A stretch of DNA of 64,000 bases from Nitrospirota bacterium (lineage in GTDB: Bacteria; Nitrospirota; UBA9217), in NCBI GenBank assembly GCA_963818475.1, contig CAWFSF010000002.1, forward strand, positions 544,001-608,000, in the 5' to 3' direction. Below are positions 1-23,575 of the stretch, piece after piece. The notes under the pieces were generated by a model. It was given only the letters and a program-made list of their open reading frames with translations, was not told the origin of the DNA and did no database searches. A program made the translations under genes and the position numbers. How positions within the stretch are numbered: the stretch's first letter is position 1; the number at the start of each line of letters is the position of its first letter.

Positions 1-50
1 TAAACTGGCCCAGTCAGTATCGTCTCCTATTTTTACCGGACTCGCTTCTC

Positions 51-494
51 TTACCTGAATGTTCCGTCTCCTAATTCCCCCCGGAGATTATGACCCCATG
101 CGTACCATTTGCCATCGGCTTTTCTACCGAATGAATGGTACCACCCTCCGGCCATATCAATCCATTCGCCGGGATTTCCGACCTGAGTGGGCGTTGTTTT
201 GCTTATCAGGCTGTTGATTCCCAGTTCTCCGTGAAGATTGTATCCCCATGCCCATAATGTTCCATTTGCGTCTTTCGCCAGTGTATGGTGTCCACCAGTC
301 GCAATTGAAACGATTGCCGCCTGATTTTCGGTTGGGATGGATATTTCGACCGGCTCCGGAGCAGTCACGTTCGACCCATTTCCTATCTGCCCGTAAACAT
401 TATATCCCCAGGTCCATACCGATCCATCTGACTTGAGCCCCGCCACATGGTTGGCCCCGGCGGAAATCATGGCCCAATCAGTGTGGTTAGGCAC
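51..494 (-). CDS. RCC1/BLIP-II repeat segment of the giant secreted protein (frameshifted continuation; runs past the window start)
   Basis: Repeats such as SAGANHVAGLKSDGSVWTWGYNVYGQIG. Another frame at 1-50 continues the repeat (SPVKIGDDTDWASL). Confidence 0.8.
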   Translation of the reverse strand: MPNHTDWAMISAGANHVAGLKSDGSVWTWGYNVYGQIGNGSNVTAPEPVEISIPTENQAAIVSIATGGHHTLAKDANGTLWAWGYNLHGELGINSLISKTTPTQVGNPGEWIDMAGGWYHSFGRKADGKWYAWGHNLRGELGDGTFR

Positions 495-2425
495 GATTGA
501 GGGATAAGGGAATCTGTTGGGAAATTGTTCCCTAATTGACCATATGCATTATCGCCCCAGGCCCAGAGGCTTCCGTCACTTTTTATTGCCAGGGCAAAAT
601 TTGCTCCTCCTGCGACTGCAACCCATGTTGTATCAGGATTTGCATTGATGACATTGACCGGGATCAGTGAATCCGTTATTTTGTTATTCCCCAATTGACC
701 GAACGCATTATCACCCCACGCCCATAATGAACCATTGGAGTCGATAGCATAGGAAGTATAATTTCCCGCTGCTATTGAAATCCAGTCAGAGGCGGTCCCA
801 ACCTGAACGGGGAAAGTCCTGCTGATCATTGTTCCGTCTCCCAGCTGCCCACCCGCATTGCCCCCCCAGGCCCACAGCGTGCCGTCTGATTTGAGCCCGA
901 GGACATGGTCACGACCTGCTGCGATTTTGGTATAAATGATGCCTGCAGGCGGTGTTGTATCAAGAGTGATCGAAGCGGCGGTGCCAGCCGACCAGAGTCC
1001 TGCATTGTCCTGGTATTTTACATAAACGTTCTTTTGTCCGTCGTCTGAGGAGAGTATCCAGGTCATCTGAGAAACGAGAGGCAGGGTGCTCCAGGTGCTG
1101 CCGCTATCATTGCTCAACCCCATCGCGGCGACGCCGTTAGCATCGTATGCGGCCAATACCAGGCTTACCGACGCACTATTTGCATATAATGCTCCATTAT
1201 TAATGATTATGGTTCCGACAGGCGGTGTAGTGTCAAGAACGATGGTATCTGTACAGGCAGGAGACCAAATGCCTGCCGCATCCTTAAACCTCACAGAGAC
1301 CGACTTTACCCCTTCCCCTGAAGCAAGCTGCCATGTTTTTGTCGTCTGATAATCTTCTTCATGAATAGGCCACGCCGTTTCGTCGTTAGTGAGCTGCATC
1401 TTCGCGATACCGCTGGAATCCGTGCCTGACAAGGTCAGCGTTACCGTAGGATCTGTCGCGTAGGAAGCGCCGCTGTTGATGACAATGCCGCCATCGAGAC
1501 AAACTGGAGCCGTCCTGTCAAACGTGATCGTATCACTGTACACCTCTGACCAGTTGCCCGCATTGTCCATATATGTTACGTAAACAGTATTCGTCTCTTC
1601 CGACGCGAATGTCCAGGTCATCGACGTCACCAGTGGCTCAGGATAGGACCAATCCACTCCGTTGCTGCTCAGCTTCATCGCCAGGACGCTGTTCCCATCC
1701 GTTGCAGACAGAGTCAGCGCCGTCACGAGACTCGTCGAGTAGACATCGTTGTTGTTGATGACAATGCTCCCGACAGGCGGATCGGTGTCAAGGATGATCG
1801 AGTCGCTATACGGGACTGACCAGTTACCGACAGAGTCCTTATACTTGACATACACAGTGTTCGTCCCCTCGAAGGCAAGGGTCCATTGTCTTGAGCTTAC
1901 ATATGCTTCCTCCAGGGACGACCAGTCGCTTCCGTCAGCGCTGAACCGCATGGAGGTAACCCCGTTAAGATCAGAGGCGGACAGGGTAAGTATCGCGACG
2001 GCATTGGTCGTGTATGTGGCATCGCTGTTGATCGTTATGTCGCCGGTCGGTGTGACCGTATCTATCGAGAAGTTGGCCTGGCCAAAAGCAGGATTTCCCG
2101 CGGCATCAGTGGCCCCTATCCAGATTGTATGAGAGCCGTCATCAAGTGGACTAAGATTTTGTCCGGATGTTTTTTGAACAATTGCGCCATCGACTTTCAC
2201 GGCTACAACAGCGTTTGCGTCATCGACGGTATACTCGAGATAAGGCTGGTTGTTATTGATTGCTCCCACAGGCGATGTAATAACTAAAACAGGGGGTGTA
2301 GCATCTATTGAAAAGTTGACTTCCTTCGCCGCGAAATTGCCGACTGCATCGGTAGCGCTCACCCAGACCTTTATGGGGGCCTTCGGCAAGAGGGCCGACA
2401 TTCTCACCTGACGTTTTTTGGACAA
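467..2425 (-). CDS. Ig-like (DTTPP-type) repeats plus RCC1 repeats; frameshifted continuation of 2253..9125
   Basis: Repeated LDTTPPxGxIxINxGAxY units, then GRDHVLGLKSDGTLWAWG repeats. It joins the upstream ORF if one A is removed near 2371 (CATAAAGGTC). Confidence 0.8.
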   Translation of the reverse strand: MSKKRQVRMSALLPKAPIKVWVSATDAVGNFAAKEVNFSIDATPPVLVITSPVGAINNNQPYLEYTVDDANAVVAVKVDGAIVQKTSGQNLSPLDDGSHTIWIGATDAAGNPAFGQANFSIDTVTPTGDITINSDATYTTNAVAILTLSASDLNGVTSMRFSADGSDWSSLEEAYVSSRQWTLAFEGTNTVYVKYKDSVGNWSVPYSDSIILDTDPPVGSIVINNNDVYSTSLVTALTLSATDGNSVLAMKLSSNGVDWSYPEPLVTSMTWTFASEETNTVYVTYMDNAGNWSEVYSDTITFDRTAPVCLDGGIVINSGASYATDPTVTLTLSGTDSSGIAKMQLTNDETAWPIHEEDYQTTKTWQLASGEGVKSVSVRFKDAAGIWSPACTDTIVLDTTPPVGTIIINNGALYANSASVSLVLAAYDANGVAAMGLSNDSGSTWSTLPLVSQMTWILSSDDGQKNVYVKYQDNAGLWSAGTAASITLDTTPPAGIIYTKIAAGRDHVLGLKSDGTLWAWGGNAGGQLGDGTMISRTFPVQVGTASDWISIAAGNYTSYAIDSNGSLWAWGDNAFGQLGNNKITDSLIPVNVINANPDTTWVAVAGGANFALAIKSDGSLWAWGDNAYGQLGNNFPTDSLIPQSCLTTLIGP

Positions 2426-5400
2426 TTACATTGTCGAGTTTAACGACTACCGTAACTGGGCTTGCATCGGTAACGGTATAGGTAAGCGTGGGTTGATTAT
2501 TGTTTGACAAGCCTGACGGCGCGGCAATCACGACATTCGGCGGCAGCGTATCTACAAAAAACTCAATGACAGCAAATGCCGAATTTCCCGCGGTATCCGT
2601 GGCTTCAATCCATACGCTATGAGAACCATAGGCAAGAAGTTCAAGGTTCTCTCCTGATTTTTTCTCAACAATTCCATTATCTACCTTAACAACAACAATC
2701 ACTGGGCTTTCGTCCGTTACAGTATAAATCAGCTGAGGCTGACTATTACCAGCAAAACCTAGTGTTGGCGAAATTATCGTTACCTGCGGCGTCCCCGTAT
2801 CGATGAATTTAATGGTAGTCGCAGTAGTACTGAATCTGCCCGATGAATCTGCTTCCCGTACATAAATGATATTATCTCCATGGATCAAATTCGAGACCGT
2901 GCACGCCCATGTTGTACCTGAGATGCCGTCGGGATACGTTATCTCCCCGGTGGATGCACCTGTTGATACGGTTACCATCACAATGGCATCAGCCTGTTTC
3001 GTGCCGGTGATATCCTGAGTGGTCGAATATACTGGAGTCGTAACAGTATTAATTGAAACAACGGGTAAAAAGGGAGATAATTTCATGATAAAAAGATCAT
3101 TCCCCGTCCCCACTCCGTCCATATAGCCCGACGTAGCGCCTAGGATGATCGGATTATTTTGACTGTCGATCTTGATACTCCTACCAACATCATTATATTC
3201 CGAACCCAACTGCCTCGACCAGAGTTTTTCGCCAGCGCTGTCGAATACCGCAACGATCAGATCGCCATAGAACCCAAGCTTGACATTACCATCAAAGTTG
3301 CCTTCTGTATAACCCGTCACCCAAATAAAATCATCTGCATCTATAGCTATACCGTTGGCGATATCCGTCATAGTTGAGCCAACAATTATCGGCTGAGCCC
3401 AGAGCGGATTTCCATTCTGATCGTATTTTGCCAGAAAAACCTCGTCGCCCCGGCCGTTCGCGATGTTCACATTCCCGGTAATATAAATATTACCTTTCGT
3501 GTCAAGTGCTACTCCGTTCGCGTTCCCGCCGTACTCGGAATAGATAAGCTTGCCCCAAACAAAGTCACCGCTAGAGTTGTATTTGATCACCACAGGACAG
3601 TTCGGCACAGATTGTGACGTATTCTCCGGATTTACGGATGTTTGGCCGGCCAGATAAATATTACCTGTTGGATCAACGGCAACACTATTGACGCTGTCAT
3701 TTCCGTACAAGCCGGACTGGATCGTCCAGTCGGTGTTACCATTTCCATTAATCTTCGAGATAAAGTAATCCGTGCCGCCACCGCCACCGTACGTTTGCGA
3801 TGCTACACTGCCGTACACATTACCGACAACGTGAATAATTCCGGACGTATCGTCGACTGTCAAATCTGTAGCGGTGTCTTCCAAGGAATAGTTGGTATTG
3901 GTCGATTCAAGGTCTGTATTCGACCATATTTCAGTGCCCATGTACCCGCTATTCTTCGTAACATTGATGGTGAAGGTGAAGGTGGTCTTGGGGCCATGGC
4001 TCGTGTTGGTCCTCGTTGTCCAGGCCGTATGAACGTTCCCGCCTTCATCCACCGCTATTGCATTGCCCTTGCTGTCTATTCCGAATTGCCATGCAGGTGC
4101 AGGCATTGTTGTTTTATTGCCCTGACTGTCGTACTGCAGCACGACAACACCTGGCGATTCAGTAGTAACATTCGTCACAATGTTTCCACCAGCATAGCCG
4201 ATAGTGTAGGAATTACCGGTTTTATCCAGAGCAAGGTCGGAAACATATTCATCTTTATAAAGTGGGCCTTGCAGCATTCCTATTTGCCTGATCCACTCTG
4301 GATCATAGGACCTCAATCCGATGGCCAGGCCCTCGGCCTCGAATGTTATCTCTGCATAGGTTATATTTCCTGAATTATCGATTGCCTCGACTCTGACGGT
4401 GTTTGTGCCCGGAAACAGACAAAGGAGCCGAGAGCCTGATTGCGTAAATATCTGGATGCCGTTCACAAATACTTTGGTATCGCCTTCGGAAACAGTGTAG
4501 ATGAGGTCGGGCTTTGTGGTGTACGTCAGGCCGCTTACCGGAGAAAGAATCGTCAGAATCGGGGGGTCGGTATCGAGGATGATCGCGCGTTCAATATGGT
4601 TCCTGAACCCCGCCATATTTTCACCCGTCGCAATGGCAACACCATTACTGCCTTTCACGAGTCCACTTACAGAACTGCTCCAGCGTCCCGGCAAAGGGGT
4701 AATGACGGGCGCGGCAATGGCAGGAGCATCGGCGATAACGGTTACCGACATCCCTGTTTCTACAGATCCTGAAAGAAGAACACTCTCCGTCTTTGTCCAT
4801 ATTTTCGACCCTTGATCCAAAGTGAGCATCGGCAATCTGGGATCAGTCAATTTGTATAAGAAAGACGTAGACGCGTGGTCGCTTGATACATAAAGGTTAT
4901 TCGAAGCATCAAGAATCACCGCACGACCTATTTCCGAAAACGAGCCCATTTGCTTAGCCCAGCGCTCATTTCCACTGCTATCTAATTTAATAACGAATAG
5001 TCCGCCTGTTCCTGATGCACCGGGCAGACTCCCTTGCATTAAACCTGTCAAGTAGATGTTCCCGTTTGGCTCTGCAATTACATCAGATCCTTGATCAAAA
5101 TAGGTGCCCCCCCATTGCTTTGACCACTGATATACTCCATTACTGTCATACTTCATCATAAATATATCGGCAGTGTCATAGCCTGCATTCCATGCTGCAA
5201 GTGACCCATATGTTCCCCCAACAATATATACCCCGCCAAGAGCGTCAACGGATAAACCCCACACCCTGTCAATCTCTTCAGTTCCCCCCTGGATTACCCA
5301 TGAGTTTCCAGTCGGCTCGAATTTTGCCAGGAAATAGTCTTCATACCCGAGATTCCATTTATCTTCGACATCCCCGTCCGATGTTCCGGCCAAATAGACA

Positions 5401-8400
5401 TTACCGCCCCTGTCCAGCGCTATTAGGGTTCTGCGTGTGACGCTTGATCGAGTCGTCAAGATGCGCTTATCGATCTGATTTCCATTTGCATCGTACTTGA
5501 TCCAGAAAGCATGCTGGTATCCGTCGAAAATCTGCCATCCAAACAGATCTCCTACAGTGGTACCACTTACATAGATATCGCCTGATGTATCAATTGCAAC
5601 ACCATGAACTCCATCTGCCTGATCAGTTGCAATCTGTTTTGTCCATTTCAAAATACCCGCAGCATCGTATTTTACGAGGTATCCATCTCTACCCCCCTGA
5701 CCTACATTGCCGTCCACCCCGCCAGCAGAAGTCAAAGCTACATAAACATTTCCTTCTGAGTCAGCAGCAATTCCCCCTGGGGTAATATTGTTATCAGTGC
5801 TCGAAAGCGTTTGTGACCAAACAAGCATTCCGTTCGCACTATATTTAACAAGCAGGAGCGCACCCGAGGAAGTCTTTCCGGAAACATAAATATTTTCCTG
5901 TTTGTCACGCGTTAATCCGAATGTATTTACCATGCTGATAGTTTGCGACAATGCAGGATCAAGTATGTAAGCCTGCTCTGTCCCTATCGAAACTACGATG
6001 CGAACTTCAGCGAACGAGCTGAGATTGCCTATTCTTGCTTCGACCCGAATAGTATAAGGACCATCAGAAAGGTCGAGCAATGATCCGGTGAAAGGATTCC
6101 CGTTGACCGTGACTATAGGTGTGCCGTTAGTGACCTCGTAGCTCAATGGGATCGAACCAGTAGAATAAACACCTTCAACCGGCGAATGAATAGTGACCAC
6201 AGGAACCCTAGTGTCGATCACGAAACTAACAGCAGCAGAGCCCACATTCACTCCGTTGCTTGCTTGCACAGTTACGGTGTGTGTTCCTTCGGCAAGATCG
6301 AGATAATCCCCTGATGCTTTAAAGAGAGGATTATTGTCGATGATGACCGTTACTAGCGCATCGGACGGAACTACTTCATAAACAAGCTGGGGTGTATGGG
6401 TGGCAATAGTTCCGACGGTCGGAGAAATGATCGTTACCAAGGGGGCGACATCGTTATCCATGATCGAGTAGTTATGAGTGCTCTGCCCCAGCGTTGCGTT
6501 GCTCGGGTTTAGGAGGTCGACTAGAATCGATTCGTCTTCCTCATGCAGAGGGTCATCCACGATCAGGAGATCGACATACTTAACCGTATCGCCCGGACTG
6601 AAAACAAGAGAACCTGGAGCAAGCTTGAAATCCAAGGTATTCGTAGCTGTGCTTGCAAGGAGGTTAACGGTGTAGCTGACCGATACCGGGAGATGATACT
6701 CGCTGTTTAGAGAGACCTGCAGGCGGACAGACGGGGCGCTTTCGTCATTGGCTGAACCAGCCAAATTGAATCCGACAACTGGCTTGGGGATAGTGCTCAC
6801 AATCGTATTCGAAGCGATATTGTTTAGTTTACTTGTTTCTATGACTACGTTGTTCGGATCAACCGATACTTCATAGGTGTGGCTCAACCCATCAGTGATC
6901 TCTACAACAAACAAAACCATTGTCGCTGTCTGACCTGGAAACGACGTCGTGACGTCATTTCCAACCTTTACACGGGTGCCGGAAATCGGGTCAACTTCAT
7001 AAAGCCTAACCAGGGCGTTCGAAACCGAATTCTGCCCGGTGTTGTTGATCCTGGCGGTGATTGTTACTGATTCCGAAAGGGTCGTAACGAACTCAGGATT
7101 GAAGACGATGTTAGAAGCAATAATGGAGAGGTCGGGATCGGTATCGGTTAATCGCAGCGCCCTTACTGCCAGCGCCGTTTGGAAGGTACTGTGATTCCAG
7201 TTTCGGTAGGGAGATTCGATATCTTGGGTATCGCGAAGGAAGGTAAGACCATTATTCGTTATGCTCGTATCTGCCCTCAGTTCGCGCAGCGCAAGCACTG
7301 CAACAGCAGTATCATATACGGTACTCGGACTGTTCCCGAAGCCGCCGTCTTCCAAGTTCTGTTTGCGCTGGAGCCATGTTTTACCGGTTGATATTTTTTC
7401 CTCGTCTAGGCCAAAACCGGATCTATAAACATTGAATGCGGAAAGGACCGACGCTGTGGGAAGGATCGTGCTCGTCATCGTGTCTTTCCCGTTGCCGGCG
7501 CTCCATCCGTTATCAGAATTTTGATTCGCTGAAAGATAGGCAATGGCGTTTGTCAGTACGGTCGGATCGGCATATCCAGCGGAAGCGAGGGCTTTAAGCG
7601 CAAGCGCGGTATCCAGGTTGTTGCTTCCGAAACCACTTTTGCTTCCCCAGCCGCCGTCTGAATTCTGTCGGCCGATCAGTTCGTTCTTCAGGACGCTAAC
7701 GTCCTGCCCCGGATCGGAGGATAACGCTTCGATCGCGCGGGCAAGGTAGTCGGTATTTTCTATAGAGGCGGTGTTTAACCAGGTGAGTCCGCTAAAATAG
7801 TTCTGCTGCGCGCTGGTGAAATATTTGAGAGTCAGAAGTGTCTCCGCGGTATCCCGGAGCGTTGTTGAAGAAAGATCCTCCCACCTGCCGTCCGATTGCT
7901 GCTGACTGATGAGCCAATTGAGGCCGTCGTTAATGCTAACTGGCGTTGTTCTGAGCGTGAGCGTCGGAGAGGTAATGAGGGGATGCTCAGTCAATGACGT
8001 AATCGGGGACGGCGCAACTTCCATCATGGCCTTGCCGTCGGTCAGGACGGAAAATCGGGTGACCCATTCTTTTCTGATCGCTTCGATCCCTGCAAGGTCA
8101 GCGTTGCTGGGTATATCATCGGTGGTCAGATAAATGAACGCCATCTTGATCGTTTTTGAAGTCTCGGCAGCACTCGGAACGCGCTCTCCCATTGCGGCTA
8201 CGATCTGAGTCATGGAGACCGTGGAAACGAGGCCGCTGATCGTATCACCGACTTTGGGAAGTTGATTTTTGTCTATGAGAGGGTTATCGATCAGGAGCAT
8301 GTCGGGAACCTGGGTCTTGTCGATCATGCCCATGAGGTAAAGTTCAAGCGGGCTGAATATCCTCCCTATGCCTGAAACGACATGATTGTCCGGAGAAATA

Positions 8401-9125
8401 GAGGTAAACGTGCCGTCGCCATTATCCTGCCAGTGGTTCCCGTAGAGTGTGGAGCCGTTCGTCTCGAAGAGGTAGCTCCAGTGGGCATTGTCCTTGCCGA
8501 GCAGTCCTTCGCTGTCAGGGCTGTTCAGATCAGCGGGATCGGTCTTGTATCTGATATAAGCACCCCAGCGGTGCATCATCTCATGAGACAGCTCCATCAG
8601 CGTCTCTTCGAACTTGGGATCGAGCGGATCGCTGGTATGGCCTGCGATATTTGCCATTTCTATAAGACCCTGAAGCTTTTTTCCATTGATGCCGTAGCTG
8701 GGCCGGTAATCGAAGAGCTCTTCCGTTCTTCCGGGACCGACACCGATGCCCTGCACATCGTTACGGATGCCGGAATAAAAACCTTTTGCGCCTGCCTGCG
8801 GCATGAAAAAATCGAAATTCGTGAAGATTACGAGGAAGTCATACTCGTCTTTGTGAGTTTCGTAGAATTTCTGTGCTACAAGCGCGCGGGGATTGTAATT
8901 AGATGTGCCGTTGGTAAAATTGGAGAAGTAATTCTCTGTGCCCGTAACGGTCATTACCGTCACTAGATCAACATCGCTGGTTGATTTAACTCCAAAATTT
9001 GTCGCGAATGACAGAGATGGGGCCAGGAGGAGCGCCATGAGCAGTAGCAGTATAAAAGACCGTAGGGTGACAAGGAGATTACTCGTTTTTTTCAGTCCCT
9101 GTCCCATGCTGTGGAATATGCTCAT
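2253..9125 (-). CDS. Giant secreted multidomain protein: HExxH metallopeptidase-like, prenyltransferase/squalene-oxidase QW repeats, CARDB, Calx-beta, Ig-like, two SBBP-type beta-propellers
   Basis: RBS GGAGGAG and signal peptide. Motifs: HEMMHRW; QQSDGRW/QNSDGGW/QNSDNGW/QNLEDGGF; PDLSI..INNTG..VDPNNVVIETSKLNN (CARDB); LVFSPGDT..IVDD..E.DE (Calx-beta); AVDxxGNIYLAG repeats. Confidence 0.85.
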   Translation of the reverse strand: MSIFHSMGQGLKKTSNLLVTLRSFILLLLMALLLAPSLSFATNFGVKSTSDVDLVTVMTVTGTENYFSNFTNGTSNYNPRALVAQKFYETHKDEYDFLVIFTNFDFFMPQAGAKGFYSGIRNDVQGIGVGPGRTEELFDYRPSYGINGKKLQGLIEMANIAGHTSDPLDPKFEETLMELSHEMMHRWGAYIRYKTDPADLNSPDSEGLLGKDNAHWSYLFETNGSTLYGNHWQDNGDGTFTSISPDNHVVSGIGRIFSPLELYLMGMIDKTQVPDMLLIDNPLIDKNQLPKVGDTISGLVSTVSMTQIVAAMGERVPSAAETSKTIKMAFIYLTTDDIPSNADLAGIEAIRKEWVTRFSVLTDGKAMMEVAPSPITSLTEHPLITSPTLTLRTTPVSINDGLNWLISQQQSDGRWEDLSSTTLRDTAETLLTLKYFTSAQQNYFSGLTWLNTASIENTDYLARAIEALSSDPGQDVSVLKNELIGRQNSDGGWGSKSGFGSNNLDTALALKALASAGYADPTVLTNAIAYLSANQNSDNGWSAGNGKDTMTSTILPTASVLSAFNVYRSGFGLDEEKISTGKTWLQRKQNLEDGGFGNSPSTVYDTAVAVLALRELRADTSITNNGLTFLRDTQDIESPYRNWNHSTFQTALAVRALRLTDTDPDLSIIASNIVFNPEFVTTLSESVTITARINNTGQNSVSNALVRLYEVDPISGTRVKVGNDVTTSFPGQTATMVLFVVEITDGLSHTYEVSVDPNNVVIETSKLNNIASNTIVSTIPKPVVGFNLAGSANDESAPSVRLQVSLNSEYHLPVSVSYTVNLLASTATNTLDFKLAPGSLVFSPGDTVKYVDLLIVDDPLHEEDESILVDLLNPSNATLGQSTHNYSIMDNDVAPLVTIISPTVGTIATHTPQLVYEVVPSDALVTVIIDNNPLFKASGDYLDLAEGTHTVTVQASNGVNVGSAAVSFVIDTRVPVVTIHSPVEGVYSTGSIPLSYEVTNGTPIVTVNGNPFTGSLLDLSDGPYTIRVEARIGNLSSFAEVRIVVSIGTEQAYILDPALSQTISMVNTFGLTRDKQENIYVSGKTSSGALLLVKYSANGMLVWSQTLSSTDNNITPGGIAADSEGNVYVALTSAGGVDGNVGQGGRDGYLVKYDAAGILKWTKQIATDQADGVHGVAIDTSGDIYVSGTTVGDLFGWQIFDGYQHAFWIKYDANGNQIDKRILTTRSSVTRRTLIALDRGGNVYLAGTSDGDVEDKWNLGYEDYFLAKFEPTGNSWVIQGGTEEIDRVWGLSVDALGGVYIVGGTYGSLAAWNAGYDTADIFMMKYDSNGVYQWSKQWGGTYFDQGSDVIAEPNGNIYLTGLMQGSLPGASGTGGLFVIKLDSSGNERWAKQMGSFSEIGRAVILDASNNLYVSSDHASTSFLYKLTDPRLPMLTLDQGSKIWTKTESVLLSGSVETGMSVTVIADAPAIAAPVITPLPGRWSSSVSGLVKGSNGVAIATGENMAGFRNHIERAIILDTDPPILTILSPVSGLTYTTKPDLIYTVSEGDTKVFVNGIQIFTQSGSRLLCLFPGTNTVRVEAIDNSGNITYAEITFEAEGLAIGLRSYDPEWIRQIGMLQGPLYKDEYVSDLALDKTGNSYTIGYAGGNIVTNVTTESPGVVVLQYDSQGNKTTMPAPAWQFGIDSKGNAIAVDEGGNVHTAWTTRTNTSHGPKTTFTFTINVTKNSGYMGTEIWSNTDLESTNTNYSLEDTATDLTVDDTSGIIHVVGNVYGSVASQTYGGGGGTDYFISKINGNGNTDWTIQSGLYGNDSVNSVAVDPTGNIYLAGQTSVNPENTSQSVPNCPVVIKYNSSGDFVWGKLIYSEYGGNANGVALDTKGNIYITGNVNIANGRGDEVFLAKYDQNGNPLWAQPIIVGSTMTDIANGIAIDADDFIWVTGYTEGNFDGNVKLGFYGDLIVAVFDSAGEKLWSRQLGSEYNDVGRSIKIDSQNNPIILGATSGYMDGVGTGNDLFIMKLSPFLPVVSINTVTTPVYSTTQDITGTKQADAIVMVTVSTGASTGEITYPDGISGTTWACTVSNLIHGDNIIYVREADSSGRFSTTATTIKFIDTGTPQVTIISPTLGFAGNSQPQLIYTVTDESPVIVVVKVDNGIVEKKSGENLELLAYGSHSVWIEATDTAGNSAFAVIEFFVDTLPPNVVIAAPSGLSNNNQPTLTYTVTDASPVTVVVKLDNVIVQKTSGENVGPLAEGPHKGLGERYRCSRQFRGEGSQLFNRCYTPCFSYYIACGSNQ

Positions 9126-9167
9126 GACTCCTCCATTGTTGTAAGAAATGTCGTAATCCTGTCAGAT

Positions 9168-9593
9168 CTATTGCTGTTTACCGCTGGTTTGCTTGATCCG
9201 CGCGACAGGCGGTTTCGGCATGGCCTTTGACATGATCTCAATAGACTGCTTTCCATTTTCAAGCCGGACGATGATCTTCTCAGGGCCGTCCTTGGTCATT
9301 CTTTCGAGCAGCACCCTGTCTTTCGCGATCTCAACCACTCGGAGTGATTCCTCGGTCGTTTTTTGTTTTTTCTTCTTTTTGGCCGCTGTTGAATCCGTTC
9401 CTTTTTCTTCTGCGCTGATCACATCCCCGACCCCGACCATCCTGAGCTTTCCGTCGATGTCCTTGATGACAGCCTTCCCTTCCGGCTCGGAAATCTTGAC
9501 GAAATGAATTTTGTCGAGAGGATTTGCGTGAACCGGAAGTGGACTCAGCAATAATAATGCAGCTAGATATGATAAAATATTATGGCGTTTCAT
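9168..9593 (-). CDS. Secreted PilP / GspC-HR-like small protein
   Basis: Signal peptide (..PVHA). Pattern KAVIKDIDGKLRMVGVGDVI...RVVEIAKDRVLLE resembles the PilP/GspC HR beta-domain. Confidence 0.6.
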   Translation of the reverse strand: MKRHNILSYLAALLLLSPLPVHANPLDKIHFVKISEPEGKAVIKDIDGKLRMVGVGDVISAEEKGTDSTAAKKKKKQKTTEESLRVVEIAKDRVLLERMTKDGPEKIIVRLENGKQSIEIMSKAMPKPPVARIKQTSGKQQ

Positions 9594-9800
9594 ATAAACC
9601 TCCGGACAACATTGATTTCCATACCCGCTGATGCGATCATCCCATGATGCACTTGATGCCTCGTGGCGAGTGCTTTTCCTATTGATGAAAACCTATTGAT
9701 CCACTCCCACGATAGTTATGCACCGTAAGAACCAACGTCCCCAAAGATTCTGCGACTGATACTGCTCTGCTACATGTCTAATTTCACGTCAAAATCGATA

Positions 9801-9878
9801 CGCAACGGGTGCAACTACGTCCCCAAGCGTTCCGCAACGGGTGCAACTACGTCCCCAAGCGTTCCGCCCAAGCGTTCC
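9801..9878. repeat. 32-bp tandem direct repeat (two full copies plus a partial third)
   Basis: CGCAACGGGTGCAACTACGTCCCCAAGCGTTC at 9801-9832 and 9833-9864; CCCAAGCGTTCC again at 9867-9878. Confidence 0.9.
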
Positions 9879-9883
9879 AAAAA

Positions 9884-10760
9884 TCACTCTACCCACTTCC
9901 ACCGCAGAATCTTGTACTGCGAATCAGTCCGCATCCATGTGTAGATACTTCCATCAGGACCGGCAACCGCTTCGCCATACTGAGCCACTAGCGTCGGAAT
10001 GCGTTCAACACCTACGATTCGGACCGGACCGAATTCATCATTCGGTTTTATCCATTCAGAAACTACGGCTACCTTGTATTTTTTCTTTTCGTTTGGTTGC
10101 ACCGGTATCTCCTCAGACACTTTATAAGCAGTGGCCTTAAATTTTTGATTTTGTACAATCAGACTCGCGTTCACCTTTAAGAGCCCCTCCTCTTTGATTG
10201 CATCTTTGGCACCTTCATAAATATATATTCCATCAGGGTACTCGATCTGATAGTGCCACTGCGATACGGAAAGCTTCTTTGCCGTAAGCCTGCCGAGTTC
10301 AAGGGGACGGGCGGTCACGGTTTCTTGAAGACCGAAGGAAGCATCATATTTACGATATGTTACTGCATCTTTTGTCCAGAATACCCCAGCTGAGCCAAAT
10401 GCTATTACATCACCCATATAGCTATACTTACTCATCGCATAAGATATTCCACCTTGTGGCCGTTTCACTTTACTCCAATTAACGACTTCTAAAAGACTTC
10501 CATCGGTTTTGTACACTTCCTGTTCTTTCATTCGGAATATCGCTTATTAGTACCCGCCCATCGGAGAGAACTTCAATGGCATCTGGCCAAGCATCAGATG
10601 CCAGAGAGTCACCCTTTGACAACCCAAACTGTGTTGACTCCTGCCCCCACGTGCCGCTTAATACAATCTCTGGCAGCCCCCACATACCAAAAGCACCAAT
10701 TGGAATGAGCATACAGACAATAGCCCACACACAGCACATCATTAGTCTTATTAATCCCAT
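9884..10760 (-). CDS. Secreted protein, candidate immunity protein (frameshift near 10530; ORFs 10479..10760 + 9884..10531)
   Basis: Signal-peptide-like N-terminus and NHL/propeller-like motifs (PDAIEVLSDGRVLISD; VAGPDGSIYTW). The start overlaps the upstream gene's stop. Confidence 0.6.
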
Positions 10761-11660
10761 AATTTCACCCTCCCGAATCCAAGAGGAGACTTCAGTGCGC
10801 CTCTTGTATCTCTTGTAATTTGATTTACGACAGTCATTCTATTAAAATCAGTGCACCAATCAGGTTTTTTCTTACTGCCATAACACACTTTCTCGCTCCC
10901 ACTCGCATGCAATATTCTGATATTCATCTTCCTGTAGGTCTTCACATAAGCCCGAATCATCACCTTTCATGCAATAGACCATTGCTACATGGCTAATAGC
11001 TCCTGCGCTACTGCCGTAGGTCAATAGATCGCCCCGCCTCTTCAGACCTGACAAACCATCAAATAACCAATATGCTCTCTGAATTTCCGTAAATTGCCAT
11101 GCGCCGATCGCCCCATCATCTATGTGATTATTGTCGTTGTCAACATCTATTAAGTCCGGTATTTCGCAAACGAGTCCGGGGATGTCCAAACCTTTGCCAG
11201 ACGTTCCAAGTCTCTGGATGAACCCCGAGCAATCTATACCGGCCCAACTTTGGAATGCAAAATACTGAGAAGCCGTATTTATTTCTGTAGAATGCAGTCC
11301 GGAATATTTTTTCGTTCCTGTCATCCCGCATCCCGAATCATTCACATTTCCCGCATAGGCGCTGCCTACCTGACCTACTGCCGACGGAGTGCATTGTGTG
11401 ACTGATTTCCAGAACTGCTCATAGGTGTTCTTACATCCGAAACAGTAGCTTTCAGCTTCTGAAACCGTATTTCCGGTTCTTGACGTCCACGACGTATTTG
11501 CTCCTGAATAGTCGTTTCCATTCGAATGCAAGTATCTTTCTCCGTCTTGTATCATGCCGTTTACAAACCGTTGTATAACGTTCTCGTATAGCTCCAACAA
11601 GCCGGTGTCCATCTGTGTGTTCCCCGGTTCGCTGTTCGGGATCGTGTCAGTTTCTTGCAC
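10751..11660 (-). CDS. NlpC/P60 peptidoglycan-hydrolase-like C-terminal domain of the transglutaminase giant protein (frameshifts near 11655 and 10915)
   Basis: SYCFGCK, GIDCSGFIQR, RGDLLTY and SHVAMVY, then ILHASG in the shifted frame 10751..10963, giving a Cys-His-His set. Confidence 0.75.
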
Positions 11661-14188
11661 GCTGTCCCGACCAAAGACTCTTTTTCCATGATTTTGTAGA
11701 ACCAGTACAACGGCGGGCTGTTGGTGTCGGTCGCATCGAGTCCGTAGTCTTTTTTGATCTTGTTGTACGTGTCGCTCGCAGCAGGTTCTATACCAAAGCT
11801 TTGTTTGAACAGTTTGACCCCGGCATACGCGACATTGTCATAGATTCCATTTTCATCCAATAGGCTATATTGATTAGGGACCCATGCGCTGCCGTCGTAG
11901 GTTTCCCGCATTCTCGGAACGACCTGATTTAATAGTTCCTGGACATAATCCAGCTTTCGATACTCATCCTTGCTTGCCGTTGTCTTGCCCTTATGATTGT
12001 CTCCACTTGCCGTATCATAGGTGAACACGGCCTGTCCATCCAGCACCTCTTTTAAATTGGTATTGGCATTGGTTTTCACGTTCCAGACAGGCTGGATGGT
12101 TTGCGTTGTTGTAGTTCCGTCCGACGCCATGAGGCTGAACTGGACCTGTATGCCGTTGGTGCCGGTTAAGGGATCGCTGTTCATGACTGGGCCGAGCGTA
12201 GGATCAGCTGTGAGCGTGAATTCGGTTTTACCCGCGCCGTCAAGCATCACTTCCGGCGTGATATTGATTGTGAAGTTTGTCGGCGCAAGAATTTTCGCTT
12301 TTATCTTCCTGCCGGTTGTCGGCGTTCCGTCCAGGTTCATGCCTTTGACCGTGATCTTCTTGCCCCCTAGTGCAGGATAATAATCAAAGTACCTGAGTTT
12401 TGAATTCGGGTATTGCGTATCGACACTCTCCAGATAAATGCCGTACGCCTTCACCTGCACCTTCTTGCTCCAAATCTCGGACGAACCATGGCCGTAGTTG
12501 AGCACCACCTGCATCTCGTATGTCTGCCCGGGTACAAATGAATACCCATGTGCGATGGTCTCGGTGATTGTCCCCTGAGCAAGCGTCTTGTACCGGAAAT
12601 CAAACAAGGAACCATTCTTGTAGAAGGCCAGCTGCGCTGTCGCCGCCCGATACTCTGTTGGCACGATCGAGTAGCTTATAGCGGTATCTTGTATAGCTCT
12701 GCCGTACTGGTCTACTGGAATAAATACATCTGGCGGCAACTGAGCATCGACACCATATATTGTGATTGCCAGCGTATTGGTTAATGATCCAGTAGCAGCA
12801 TCAATATTTACGCTATTCGGGCCTGATGGGAAATTTAACTGTCCGTTGTACATCCCGTTAACGTGAGACGTGGAGAAAACATTGTTGAATTTAACCGTTA
12901 GATCCTCCGGATACACGACGGACATGACACCGTTTCGGACTCCGAGAACATATGATTTTGCGCTGATCGAACCAAGTGATCCGGTTTTTCGGGCATCGAT
13001 TCTAGTTCCTGTTGAATCGGCATCGTTGAAATAATCCAGGACAAGCACATCGTCCGGGGGACTCGTCTGGCTGCAAGAGGGGATGCTATTAGTTTTTAGC
13101 ATCGAAAAAGTCGTGGTAGAAGTTCCTTGTGTATAAACATCGACCGGATACGTCGCATTCGGCAGTCCTCCTAAAATCGCACCGAGCAATACACTACCGT
13201 CGCTATAGCTTTTAATACTGGTCACAGTATCCGGTCTCTGACCACATTCCCCCCACGCCGGATTATTCTTTGCGCAAACTGTATCTTCAATGAGCTGCAG
13301 CTTAAGCTTAGCCTGATCGGCAATAGCACATACTGCTCCAATAGGATCTTGTGCCGTAAAATTTAACGGAACGTTCGCTTTCGGGTTTCCATGTTGGTCT
13401 TTGACGTAAGCACCTACTGTCCCTATGTAGCTCAAGATGGCGCCCGATCTGTCACCGCTGCCCCCCCATGGTGTGATTTGGGCAGAAATATCAGGAAACG
13501 CCAGGATTGAAAAATAACTGGGCAACGGAGTGTCCAGCCTGCCCGATTTTAACACCGCGTCAATGATATTCTCTCCAACCTGGTTTGGATAGACATCGCC
13601 TATTCTTTGAATGAAGCTGGTGTTAACATACGTGCTTTGTCCGGGTTTCATTTTGATCGACGCGATCCCTAGTTCATTCGCTTGAACTTCTTTTGTCTGT
13701 ACCAGCTCGCCATTACCCGGATCAACCAATGCGCCCCCACCTGAGCTGATTCTAAACTCCACCCTTGCGCCTGCCACAGGTTTTTTTGTAATATCGCGCA
13801 CGAGGACCATAAGAGAAGAATTGTCAGGATATTGCATAATCTTATCTACTGTAGCCAGCTGCAAGTCAGTCGCTGTTACCTTCTCAATATAGTAAGCTTC
13901 ATCAGCGTTGGAATTCACCGGTCCATAGTTTGGGGCTTCGAGTATCGCCACGAGGTTCAGATCCGACCAGCTAACCGCTCCAAGGGCAGTCATCCCACCC
14001 GCTACCATGCCGGACAGCATATAGCCCGCCTCGCCGGTTGTCGTGTTCTCTTTGATGTATCCGATCCCGGTCCAGTCCTGATAGGTAATTTCAGATTGCG
14101 GAATGCGGATTGCGGAATTATTTGCAACTGCTTCACGTAATGTCTTGCTTGATATTGTCGTCAAAAGGCAAGGTCGGAAGAATTGCAT
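11561..14188 (-). CDS. Central part of the transglutaminase giant protein: conserved core end, Ig/invasin-like stalk, PG_binding_1-like domain
   Basis: WTGIGYIKEN..GEAGYMLSGMVAGG; VLVRD..KKPVAGARVEF and VKDQHGNPKANVPLNF (Big_1-like); VQELLNQ..LDENGIYD..GVKLFKQSFGI. Confidence 0.7.
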   Translation of the reverse strand: MQFFRPCLLTTISSKTLREAVANNSAIRIPQSEITYQDWTGIGYIKENTTTGEAGYMLSGMVAGGMTALGAVSWSDLNLVAILEAPNYGPVNSNADEAYYIEKVTATDLQLATVDKIMQYPDNSSLMVLVRDITKKPVAGARVEFRISSGGGALVDPGNGELVQTKEVQANELGIASIKMKPGQSTYVNTSFIQRIGDVYPNQVGENIIDAVLKSGRLDTPLPSYFSILAFPDISAQITPWGGSGDRSGAILSYIGTVGAYVKDQHGNPKANVPLNFTAQDPIGAVCAIADQAKLKLQLIEDTVCAKNNPAWGECGQRPDTVTSIKSYSDGSVLLGAILGGLPNATYPVDVYTQGTSTTTFSMLKTNSIPSCSQTSPPDDVLVLDYFNDADSTGTRIDARKTGSLGSISAKSYVLGVRNGVMSVVYPEDLTVKFNNVFSTSHVNGMYNGQLNFPSGPNSVNIDAATGSLTNTLAITIYGVDAQLPPDVFIPVDQYGRAIQDTAISYSIVPTEYRAATAQLAFYKNGSLFDFRYKTLAQGTITETIAHGYSFVPGQTYEMQVVLNYGHGSSEIWSKKVQVKAYGIYLESVDTQYPNSKLRYFDYYPALGGKKITVKGMNLDGTPTTGRKIKAKILAPTNFTINITPEVMLDGAGKTEFTLTADPTLGPVMNSDPLTGTNGIQVQFSLMASDGTTTTQTIQPVWNVKTNANTNLKEVLDGQAVFTYDTASGDNHKGKTTASKDEYRKLDYVQELLNQVVPRMRETYDGSAWVPNQYSLLDENGIYDNVAYAGVKLFKQSFGIEPAASDTYNKIKKDYGLDATDTNSPPLYWFYKIMEKESLVGTACKKLTRSRTANRGTHRWTPACWSYTRTLYNGL

Positions 14189-14361
14189 CGATATTGGCCT
14201 GATCGATAGTCAGAATAGGCGTTGCCGGCTGACTGCCGCTGGCTATGCCGAAGAGCTTTGCCGTTGAGATCGATCCTACGTCGAACGCATCTTCAAACAG
14301 CTTGCTTTCGAGCACCGAGCCCTGGAGGCCTGACAGCTGCATGAATGTCAGGGTCCGGCTG

Positions 14362-16356
14362 TCAGGGATCAGCGTCCGTGGTTACAGCCTCCACACTTCT
14401 CAAATCAGCATCCAGAAACAAACCCTTCCACTCGAAACCCTGCGGATCTTCTCCCGCATAGGTGACATCGATTGAATTGGCAAGGGTGACGATTGTCGGA
14501 AGAGGCCTGCTTAAGGCAACCTTGAACAGGGAAGAAAGCTCGACCTCCGCCTTGTTCCAGTTGTCGATATAATTTATAGCCTCCCGGTACAGGAGGTTCG
14601 CTGCTTTTGTATCATCCAGTCCTATGGGGATGACTGCATTCTGAGAAACGACGCCAAGGGCGGTCAAATTCCCGCTGATCATCGAGTTCGTAAAGGTTTC
14701 TGTTCCATTGGGAGACGTGATCGTAATTGAGAGGTTATAATCAGCTCCCATGGCGATGCCGCCGGTCCCGACAACGATCCTCTCATCATCGATCATGAGG
14801 ACAGGGCGCAAATGAACAAGATAAGCCGGGGTATTGTCCAGGCCACCGAAGGTGTTTATGGTCTCCTGGTCGTCCACCGTCTCGGGTTCATAGCTTATGA
14901 TGACTTTCCTGTTCGAGAGCTTCTGCATATCCAGCGTGATCGAAAAAAGCTCATTATTGGCGAGATCCTTTGCCAATAAGGTCGCTTTATGGATAAGCTC
15001 GGCCGGAAGGGCTGTATACTCCCCGGTGATCGCCGTTTCCTTGAACTGCAGGCTCGAAGGCAGGATCTGCATCACGTCGGAATTCAGCGTCCTGGTGCTG
15101 AGGTAATCCGTGTAGGTTTTTGTCGGACTGGTCTGGAGGAGATGCTCGTTGATCCGTGCTGTAAGATATTCGAGCGGCGTTCCGGTCTGGACTGCCGAGA
15201 GATAGTCATCCCGCATGGCAGTGAGCGACATCCCGCTCAACAAGATGTCATCTGACTGATTTTCCGCGTACCCGCCTGCTTTGATACTCGTGTCTAGGGC
15301 CAGCCAGATTTCCCCCTGTTTATCCATGACCGCCCCGCGGTAGTTGGAATAAGGGACGAAGGTCTCTACCCAGAGATGCTCGATCTGGATATTCTTTATC
15401 ACGGTCCCGTCCATCACGACCTGATGGGGAATGCCTGCCTTCTGAAAGAACTCGCCGAGCTTCGCAGGATCACTCACCCCGGTCAGGTTCTTCGCCTTCT
15501 CGATATCCGGGAAAAACTCGATCGTGCCGCGGACATAGCGTGTCGGATAGCCCGATGCACGCATGAGCGCGACCAATAATGCAGCCTGATCGCAGTCATT
15601 CCCGCTCTTTTGACGAAGCGTTTCCTCCGCGCCTTTCATGCATCCCCAGTACCACTCGGTCTCGATGTTGTTCTTGACGAATTCATAGATTAAGACCGGA
15701 TTCCAGTTGAGGGACTGGGCTTTAGCGACGATCTCTGCTGACAGAGGTGCCTCTGCCGTGCCCTTTGTATCGTCAGTGGCCACAGATTGGTTGCCGTTGC
15801 GATAGGCCGGAATAATAACAGGAGTGGCACTCGGTAAAACTGCCGGGTAATTCAGATGTTTATAAGGAAGGCTGCCGATGATGGGATGTTTCTTTTCATG
15901 AACGATGCGATCGAGGAGCTTTTCCAGCTTATCAGCAATGCGGGAAGAAACTTCACCTGAATCGGGTATGGAATTGACGAGGCTCAAGTACTCCTCAAGC
16001 GCCTTGAGGTAGCCGCTTTTTACTTTTTCCTGCCGATCCCGGGCCTTGCTCCCGAGATTTTTCACTTTTTCGTCGCGCACCCGGAAGCGCTCCTGGAGCA
16101 GCATGTGCGATGCGGCTATATCTTCTGAAAGGGTTTTTAACCGCTTTCCATCGAGGGTTGACGCAGCACCCGACTTCTGCTTTTCACGCACGATCCTGAC
16201 TAATTTTTTGCTTTGCGAAAGCTTGTTCTGCAGATCTTTTTCAAGATCCAAGTCAGCGGCGTTGACTGAGAGCGGGGAAGATGTCAGGCTGAGAAAAAGT
16301 GCGAAGCGTAATAAATTGATACCGATGCTGTTGCCCCTTTGGGAAGTCTTCTGCAC
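14362..16356 (-). CDS. Secreted transglutaminase-like domain protein, N-terminal part (continues via 14133..14342 into 11561..14188)
   Basis: GTG start with RBS GGAGGA and a signal peptide. GNDCDQAALLVALMRASGYPTRYVRG, EHLWVE and WLALD give a Cys-His-Asp triad. Confidence 0.85.
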   Translation of the reverse strand: MQKTSQRGNSIGINLLRFALFLSLTSSPLSVNAADLDLEKDLQNKLSQSKKLVRIVREKQKSGAASTLDGKRLKTLSEDIAASHMLLQERFRVRDEKVKNLGSKARDRQEKVKSGYLKALEEYLSLVNSIPDSGEVSSRIADKLEKLLDRIVHEKKHPIIGSLPYKHLNYPAVLPSATPVIIPAYRNGNQSVATDDTKGTAEAPLSAEIVAKAQSLNWNPVLIYEFVKNNIETEWYWGCMKGAEETLRQKSGNDCDQAALLVALMRASGYPTRYVRGTIEFFPDIEKAKNLTGVSDPAKLGEFFQKAGIPHQVVMDGTVIKNIQIEHLWVETFVPYSNYRGAVMDKQGEIWLALDTSIKAGGYAENQSDDILLSGMSLTAMRDDYLSAVQTGTPLEYLTARINEHLLQTSPTKTYTDYLSTRTLNSDVMQILPSSLQFKETAITGEYTALPAELIHKATLLAKDLANNELFSITLDMQKLSNRKVIISYEPETVDDQETINTFGGLDNTPAYLVHLRPVLMIDDERIVVGTGGIAMGADYNLSITITSPNGTETFTNSMISGNLTALGVVSQNAVIPIGLDDTKAANLLYREAINYIDNWNKAEVELSSLFKVALSRPLPTIVTLANSIDVTYAGEDPQGFEWKGLFLDADLRSVEAVTTDADP

Positions 16357-16858: not shown

Positions 16859-17124
16859 ATTCCGCGGTCTGATGCACCCTGCTTGAGGTGCGGAGATTCC
16901 TGTCAGGGTTTTAAATTTGCAGAATAATGCATGTGTTCGAACAAAAGTCGGATTTTTTCGAAGCCGTGGAAGCTTATCAAGGTGAGAGCAAAGGAGGACT
17001 TAGTAACTATAGAATCATACCGAGTCGCAGCTTGTAACCGTGGACCTTAGAATGAAAACGAGATTGCCGCGGTCGCTGCACTCCTCGCTTGACATGCGGA
17101 GATTCTGTGCGAGGTTTTAAATTT
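16859..17124 (+). repeat. ~60-bp imperfect direct repeat, two copies (16859-16918, 17063-17124)
   Basis: Both read CCGCGGTC..TGCAC..CCT..GCTTGA..TGCGGAGATTC..TGT..GGTTTTAAATTT. Confidence 0.75.
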
Positions 17125-23126: not shown

Positions 23127-23575
23127 TTTTTCCCTCCTGCGGATGCGAGCCGAATGGCGCTCTTGATCCTGACATAGGTGCCGCAGCGGCAAAGGTTCCC
23201 GTTCATGTGCTGGACGATCGACCCGTCCGTGGGATGCGGGTCTTCGGCAAGGAGCGCCGCGGCCTGCATGATCTGGCCGGACTGGCAGTATCCGCACTGC
23301 GGCACCTGCTCCTTGACCCAGGCCCGCTTCACCGGATGGGTTTCGGGAAGCCCTTCGATGGTCGTGATCTTTTTGCCCTGCGCAGTGCCCACCGGGGTCT
23401 GGCAGGAGCGGATCGCCTTGCCGTCGAGGTGCACGGTGCAGGAGCCGCACAGGCCGATGCCGCATCCGAATTTCGTACCCGTCATCTGGAGCCGCTCGCG
23501 GATGACCCACAAAAGCGGCACGTCTTCAGCAACATCAACGTCGTATTTTTTCCCATTGATCTCCAACTGTATCAT
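23123..23575 (-). CDS. iorA: (2Fe-2S) subunit of molybdo-hydroxylase (IorA-like)
   Basis: [33 protein letters not shown]. Confidence 0.92.

Follow-up and report, generated by a model that had tools for sequence, protein, structure and literature searches.

A predicted secreted polymorphic toxin carrier and its giant alpha-toroid partner in a Nitrospirota bacterium

Introduction

How polymorphic toxins bearing a signal peptide are exported and aimed at their targets is much less clear than for toxins of the type V and type VI secretion systems (T5SS and T6SS). This question is raised by a locus of a Nitrospirota bacterium in which four co-oriented genes, here called A, B, C and D, lie on the minus strand from position 16356 to beyond the left edge of the stretch analysed (the window: 64,000 nucleotides of contig CAWFSF010000002.1, positions 544,001 to 608,000; G000:C2:544001-608000 in our numbering). 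The genes very probably belong to a Sec-exported two-partner polymorphic toxin system, in which A encodes a toxin carrier with an exchangeable tip and D a giant partner. All four possess signal peptides, as a preliminary description of the window had stated; these were judged by eye, and the breaks in the reading frames are bridged by intact homologues.

The conserved carrier module

Gene A matches the Pfam family Transglut_core above its cut-off (expectation value, E, 1.6e-10) and Big_1 below it (E 8e-4). Its N-terminal module of about 770 aa folds confidently in a homologue (predicted local distance difference test, pLDDT, 90.5) as a helical bundle, a transglutaminase-like core and a C-lobe. 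The bundle, of about 130 aa, separates the signal peptide from the transglutaminase-like domain, and the C-lobe ends across the family in the motif GYx(I/L)SGxxAGG, which reads GYMLSGMVAGG in the window copy. A profile of the module gathers 3,638 clusters at 50% identity (E 1e-30 or better) and has 226 confirmed places in the genome collection. The best 80 of these were retained as loci, and their hosts are Nitrospirota, Desulfobacterota, Betaproteobacteria, a Chromatiaceae and a Neobacillus; named genera with family members include Massilia, Duganella, Pseudoduganella, Andreprevotia and Neobacillus. None of 16 pattern matches on viral contigs was confirmed, and plasmids gave a single weak match with no giant partner annotated beside it.

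The window copy of A retains a Cys-His-Asp triad. Among 62 aligned modules His and Asp are almost invariant, and the catalytic Cys is kept in 28, so that catalysis is not required; an essential transglutaminase was rejected on the same ground, the Cys being missing in the other 34. A search of solved structures returned no close relative of the module, the best match being a distant transglutaminase (3isr, E 0.0086). The fold search with the 770-aa model recovered the transglutaminase core and generic helical bundles. Since it barely covered the C-lobe, for which the ESM Atlas also gave nothing, no new fold is claimed. None of the pieces of A, B and C matched an NCBIfam family.

Pairing with a giant toroid protein

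Gene D combines QW repeats of the SQHop_cyclase_C type with CARDB, Calx-beta, SBBP and RCC1 domains recognised by Pfam, and with Big_13 under or near the cut-off; an HEMMH motif is also present in its sequence. The QW repeats form an alpha-toroid that matches the fold family of squalene-hopene cyclases and the thioester-containing domain (TED) of alpha-2-macroglobulin. Neither DxDD nor CxEQ occurs in any of 18 aligned homologues, by which a terpene cyclase and a thioester protein were both ruled out. In related loci the giants range from about 1,200 to 7,000 aa and differ in their immunoglobulin-like (Ig), propeller, FG-GAP, lectin-type or VWA content; the toroid is constant.

Across 401 genomes of the phylum, the toxin module and the toroid occur together in 37, the module alone in 17, the toroid alone in 2 and neither in 345; related genomes are not independent in these counts. 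The giant partner is therefore near-obligate, 37 of the 39 toroid-positive genomes also carrying the toxin module. At the level of loci, a script applied to 79 of them placed a giant downstream in 20 and upstream in 11, with 40 stretches too short and 8 showing none within 5 kb on both sides. Some loci that were not scored positive have a giant all the same: L097 contains an upstream toroid gene, and in L062, L092 and L096 the giant lies just out of range. The conserved neighbourhood expected in the preliminary description is thus found across loci as well as across genomes. The host genome has two further loci of this kind, three in all. Both paralogous copies (G000:C5:292150-279258 and G000:C6:1641548-1629393) have a toroid-start giant, no C and an apparent NlpC/P60-like tip; their next genes differ (propellers in one, a YARHG-like protein by eye in the other).

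A direct contact between the two large proteins had also been proposed, and modelling agrees with it. A complex of the A module and the toroid was modelled on the intact homologous pair of L064 and scored 0.79 against 0.01 for the best control, with at least 84% of contacts shared between runs and a partner pLDDT of at least 86. The mark used for such scores is reached by 116 of 157 solved complexes and by 2 of 215 mismatched pairs, a calibration that holds only roughly here because the complex was modelled on a homologue with custom alignments. In the predicted interface a toroid loop (residues 102-113) packs on module residues 408-414, with further contacts at 314-330. The model supports binding of the A module to the toroid of D.

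Toroid-only genes of about 290 aa, with signal peptides and ending at the same boundary, occur in tandem arrays and may be either minimal partners or recombination remnants. The HExxH domain at the start of D has no Pfam family and no match among solved sequences. The ESM Atlas places it in unnamed clusters that are most frequent in Acidobacteriota and offers a weak lead to M64 (0.82, 15% of members), and in L126-L148 it is also found in proteins of 365-1,600 aa without a toroid hit.

Exchangeable tips and their next genes

Behind the conserved junction the carriers end in widely different tips, which form 91 clusters among 145 representatives with a tail of at least 80 aa, a figure that shortened proteins inflate. 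Two scans, one of 32 out of 41 tails (3 with ambiguous bases and 6 apparently frameshifted or short were excluded, and 7 duplicate loci had been removed earlier) and one of 41 representatives chosen from the 91 clusters, identified the Pfam families NLPC_P60, CHAP, Peptidase_M23, M15 and Phosphodiest, along with alpha/beta hydrolases, a T6SS_Tle1-like phospholipase, HINT with AHH, Tox-REase-5 and Rhs. Five or more YD-like (Rhs) repeats are present in 26 of the 145 representatives, a count that shortened proteins may lower. The window proteins had been described as free of Rhs/YD repeats, and none scored above cut-off in the gene pieces scanned. Relatives (L015, L023, L098, L180, L181, L188) contain orphan cassettes, each opening partway into the conserved module or the stalk and closing with a new tip and the next gene that belongs to it; the window's own locus has none.

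The gene behind the tip follows the tip, as had been anticipated together with the variable C-termini. Of 1035 pairs from 46 loci, 33 had tip and next gene in common, 13 just the tip, 11 just the next gene and 978 neither; genes were picked automatically, some loci are frameshifted and kin are not independent, which tempers this count. All seven alpha/beta-hydrolase tips of one cluster share a single next-gene family, and 5 of 6 phosphodiesterase tips share another. A scan of 27 first or second downstream genes, about half of the 56 listed, recognised SUKH (L096), Imm11 behind an AHH tip (L105) and ankyrin (L080), known immunity families being among them; Imm11 is listed for Tox-AHH in the table of Zhang et al. 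(PMC3482391). Judged by eye, the expected cellular location of the products fits as well: next genes carry signal peptides after cell-wall or lipid tips, encode membrane proteins after hydrophobic tips, and lack a signal peptide after nuclease tips.

The tip of the window copy shows the NlpC/P60 pattern, with GIDCSG and HVAMV followed, in frame after the last break, by ILHASG. The cysteine of DCS and then two conserved histidines are present, and the third residue lies past the last break. An NlpC/P60-type tip of the same kind is also found on another carrier with LVIVD repeats. Behind the window tip, gene B is distantly related to NHL/SBBP propellers, and its homologues stand directly behind the same tip type in 4 other genomes (L172-L175). 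The carrier in L172 and L173 contains LVIVD repeats and, in the stretch examined, nothing that matches the A module. From its sequence and position, gene B is a candidate cognate immunity protein.

The LVIVD-carrier loci (L172:1-13851 and L173:3-5186) join the NlpC/P60 tip and B-family gene to this other carrier, and in L172 a different giant of >2,500 aa, without a match to the toroid or HExxH profiles, follows. These loci may represent a second two-giant toxin system.

In a frequent variant of A (L017:4391-13464, L029:3-5484, L067, L089), Glucodextran_B/PKD Ig domains lead to a short C-terminal domain without a name, which we take to be NTF2-like. Behind this variant in L017 and L029 come a CarboxypepD-like small gene and an unnamed gene of 820-870 aa, and the effector may there be a separate protein. 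Tandem arrays of toxin, immunity gene and shortened giant are seen in L180, L181, L182, L025-L026 and L022-L023. Genes of REP (repetitive extragenic palindromic)-associated tyrosine transposases lie within 4 kb behind the toxin in L041, L047, L053, L058, L059, L062, L064, L069, L071, L074, L085, L091 and L106. A profile built from the same loci gave 13 hits in 153 kb downstream, 3 in 251 kb upstream and 14 in the 4.66-Mb genome. The window has a tandem repeat at the matching position behind its toxin gene; its sequence appears REP-like. These transposases may feed cassette turnover.

Weighing the two-partner reading

Several observations weigh against a paired toxin system. At E 1e-40, 17 of the 54 module-positive genomes lack the toroid, many, not all, of them being fragmented drafts or having partial hits. 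By script, 8 of the 79 loci show no giant within 5 kb on both sides, and L034 is a genuine exception, with a toxin and a C gene but no giant behind them. On A, the residues of the interface show no higher conservation than the remainder of the module (0.59 against 0.57). No family can be named for many of the short tips, often hydrophobic ones, or for most next genes, and further B homologues occur with no tip upstream. The assignment of the window tip also has its limits: PF00877 reaches 17.2 bits against a cut-off of 23 on what is a broken piece (E 5e-3), the comparison with Spr/MepS gives only E 0.23, and among relatives PF00877 scores 15.4 bits on P0002 and has no hit at E 0.001 on the intact P0149. 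The putative peptidoglycan-binding domain before the tip is weakly supported by its sequence, with no Pfam hit and a best solved match at E 0.12.

The same proteins could form a surface complex for adhesion or feeding, whose tips digest substrate or prey remains and whose next genes encode inhibitors or chaperones instead of conferring kin immunity. Many of the tips are indeed hydrolases (phosphodiesterase, lipase, amidase), D has adhesin-type domains, the Ig/PKD variant of A ends in no recognisable toxin, and giant proteins of Omnitrophota encoded near T2SS (type II secretion system)-like genes have been proposed, in the text available, to act in prey digestion (10.1101/2023.11.21.568195). 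We nevertheless hold this explanation to be decidedly improbable, for the family bears several marks of conflict systems: nuclease tips with HINT or Rhs, known immunity families, orphan cassettes and the exchange of tips between carriers.

In the two-partner toxin system that we favour, signal peptides would take both A and D across the inner membrane. The transglutaminase-like domain of A would serve as a docking surface rather than as a required enzyme and, according to the model, would bind the non-catalytic alpha-toroid of D. With its long Ig/CARDB stalk and variable binding domains, D could tether the complex to, or aim it at, a surface or a neighbouring cell. The pattern of tips suggests that the toxic end of A is swapped behind the conserved junction by recombination with orphan cassettes. 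In the window this end would be an NlpC/P60-type peptidoglycan hydrolase, which secreted B, judging by gene linkage, would neutralise in the producer's periplasm. In the branch whose giants start with the HExxH domain, C would be a dedicated helper of D. Such a family would offer a concrete delivery model, with a predicted interface, a near-obligate partner, thousands of sequence clusters and members in named genera, as well as a pool of unclassified antibacterial tips and immunity proteins, and it hints at a role for a transglutaminase domain whose catalysis is dispensable.

Gene C and the secretin question

The 141-aa protein of gene C had been assigned a PilP/GspC-HR fold, an assignment that its predicted structure supports. 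The first eight rows of a structure search are all PilP, GspC-HR or GspB-HR chains, led by GspC-HR (3oss_C; Z 9.4, rmsd 1.8 A over 62 residues) with 3jc8_Pa at Z 8.8, for a modest model (pLDDT 68.8) built from 4 sequences. Foldseek with this model found nothing at E 0.001 or better, and homologues of C have weak sub-cut-off hits to the Pfam families PilP and T2SSC. By eye, C has a cleavable-type signal peptide with an AxA-type cleavage site and no lipobox Cys.

The placement of C follows the giant. Among downstream giants, C immediately precedes 9 of 10 with an HExxH-domain start and none of 10 with a toroid start. It precedes 10 of 13 HExxH-domain starts in metagenome loci (37 such loci have the domain; 24, with proteins lacking a toroid hit, were left out of the count), and the giant in 4/4 betaproteobacterial loci having the toxin behind the giant; no C was found in front of two further giants of the HExxH type (L192, L193). 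From these counts C goes with the HExxH end of D, and C as a companion of the toxin gene was ruled out.

A machine exported through a T2SS or type IV pilus secretin by way of a dedicated adaptor had been proposed in the preliminary description, and this part of it is overstated. Because C is missing from a whole branch (0 of 10 toroid-start loci) and the toxin-toroid pair is also present in Neobacillus (L105), the core is the pair and not a three-part machine. Neobacillus is a genus not known to have an outer membrane.

What C does for the HExxH branch can be read in two ways. In the simplest form of the helper role it would be an adaptor of D to a secretin of the T2SS or of the type IV pilus (T4P), a proposal that we advance tentatively. 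HR domains bind the N0 domain of secretins (PMC9239104, as far as its text goes), and the first eight structural matches of C are all reported N0 binders there. The host has four secretins, by eye in a T2SS, a type IV pilus, a Tad and a further GspD-like cluster; its T2SS gene cluster and its own PilP-type operon lie elsewhere in the genome. We know of no precedent for a secretin adaptor encoded with its substrate. If C does bind a secretin, this would bear on how T2SS-type machines pick their substrates.

It is also quite possible, if short of probable, that C acts on the HExxH domain of D as its chaperone or inhibitor, export then proceeding by the ordinary T2SS, vesicles or another route. 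Its position before HExxH-type downstream giants and not before toroid-start ones would fit this, as would the betaproteobacterial loci, and by eye C has neither the membrane anchor of GspC nor the lipobox of PilP. Those structural matches to N0 binders speak against it, and HExxH domains also occur without C, in metagenome loci as in L192 and L193. The full arrangement, with an exchangeable toxin carrier held by a giant adhesin at a toroid-transglutaminase dock and, in one branch, a soluble PilP/GspC-HR adaptor to the secretin, we consider doubtful as a whole.

In a single case, L185:997-20000, a toroid-toxin locus lies directly beside gspC-gspD; on its other flank is an ATPase gene, presumably ExeA-like, whose nearest NCBIfam model is TIGR03015, under cut-off. 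Co-occurrence with GspK was set aside: 44 of 61 genomes matched, but the host's GspK-like gene (by eye) was missed.

Relation to known systems

At the sequence level the system is a polymorphic toxin system as defined in the text of PMC4436062: it has a conserved N-terminal module with variable tips, known shared toxin families, a tip-specific next gene and orphan cassettes. Part of it has been described before. Zhang et al. (2012; PMC3482391) reported, in the main text, inactive transglutaminase N-termini on toxins, always followed by Rhs repeats, and suggested surface anchoring; they listed these toxins under Sec/T2SS export. Signal peptide, transglutaminase-like domain often without Cys, Ig domains and varied tips are shared with the present family, and the Rhs-bearing members found here (L062, L088, L092, L096, L106) match that description and are probably the same family, the two sets being brought together by description. 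In contrast to those toxins, Rhs occurs here in 26 of 145 representatives only and not at all in the window A, whose triad is intact, the Cys being kept in 28 of 62 homologues. In the text available, PMC3482391 describes no partner gene, toroid or HR-fold protein. The view that no characterised system has this architecture thus needs correcting for the toxin N-terminus, which was partly described. It holds for the partner: the literature covered, with few subscription papers and without the figures and supplements of PMC3482391, describes neither the giant partner and its dock nor the Rhs-free forms and the HR-fold gene.

By analogy, the A-D system is closest in logic to MafA-MafB-MafI of Neisseria, with unrelated parts. 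According to the text of PMC7738311 and PMC4436062, the two share a signal-peptide toxin with a conserved N-domain and variable tip, an immunity gene, cassettes and a partner from the same island. MafB, however, has DUF1020, and export there runs through MafA itself, an oligomer in the outer membrane, whereas the partner here is a multi-thousand-residue toroid/Ig protein; Pfam and NCBIfam scans of the window proteins found no Maf families. A long carrier, exchangeable tip, adjacent immunity gene, orphan modules and a common pool of tips are also features of contact-dependent inhibition (CDI; CdiBAI) and T6SS Rhs toxins (PMC4436062, in the text available). Unlike in CDI, there is no TpsB-type gene among the four genes, and the host genome (91% complete) has no match to VgrG (PF04717) or TssB (PF05591).

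GspC-HR, GspB-HR and PilP share their fold with C, but in the account of PMC9239104, as available, they are membrane-anchored parts of the machine, whereas C looks soluble and is encoded with the presumed substrate. Large secreted proteins with Ig/CARDB domains or repeats, in loci of a variable or conflict type, are known from the VARTIG modules of Thermococcales (PMC8416519), bacterial teneurin-like toxins (10.1101/2025.11.11.687626) and the Omnitrophota giants (10.1101/2023.11.21.568195); the available text of these three sources mentions neither a transglutaminase nor a carrier-toroid pair.

Layout and state of the window copy

The nearest relatives of the locus are in Nitrospirota / Thermodesulfovibrionales. 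Gene A is interrupted by four frameshifts (near 14365, 14140, 11666 and 10940), but can be taken as a single gene since its pieces are collinear with five intact homologues (1926-1986 aa), of which P0159 and P0160 span all five pieces. Gene B, which begins about 10 nt before A ends, is broken once, near 10525, and an intact 293-aa homologue (P0004) covers both pieces. Three-frame translation by eye places five breaks in gene D, near 2400, 520, 55, 0 and -100; a terminator-like hairpin lies 3' of it.

The roughly ten frameshifts are probably assembly errors. One might suppose instead that the family is as described and the window copy a decaying pseudogene cluster: the density of frameshifts, 10 in 17.8 kb against 24 in 100 kb, is about twice that of the genome (Poisson P 0.013), a further point against a working copy, and shortened copies are frequent in tandem arrays of relatives. 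Decay is unlikely all the same, for 20 of 83 conserved genes tested in the host assembly are broken too, as is the neighbouring gene of a molybdopterin enzyme; the located breaks are changes of frame after which homology resumes in the next frame, and all four genes are full length.

The refuting findings named at the outset did not materialise: the families co-occur elsewhere, the C-termini vary and the 141-aa protein has a PilP-type fold.

Table 1. Features of the locus, in window coordinates unless stated otherwise.
Feature	Position	Strand	Remarks
Gene A	16356 to ~10751	-	~1868 codons; predicted polymorphic toxin carrier, five pieces
Domain order of A			signal peptide, helical bundle, transglutaminase-like core, C-lobe, Ig stalk, putative peptidoglycan-binding domain, NlpC/P60-type tip
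Conserved N-terminal module of A (~770 aa)	14060..16260	-	approximate limits
NlpC/P60-type tip of A	10751..11660	-	
Gene B	10760-9884	-	~292 codons, signal peptide; candidate cognate immunity protein
Tandem 32-nt repeat between B and C	9793..9856	.	short look-alikes elsewhere in genome
Gene C	9593-9168	-	141 aa, unbroken
Gene D	start 9125, end G000:C2:542513 (window -1487)	-	~3535 codons; predicted giant secreted partner
Domain order of D			HExxH domain, QW-repeat alpha-toroid, CARDB, Calx-beta, Ig repeats, SBBP propellers, RCC1 propellers
Alpha-toroid of D	7140..7950	-	approximate limits; modelled docking site for A

The molybdopterin-binding oxidoreductase large-subunit gene (20959-23510) is split over three frames and adjoined by genes that by eye are XdhC- and MocA/MobA-like. 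The intergenic region 5' of A contains a 38-nt imperfect direct repeat (79%) at 16881-16918 and 17087-17124.

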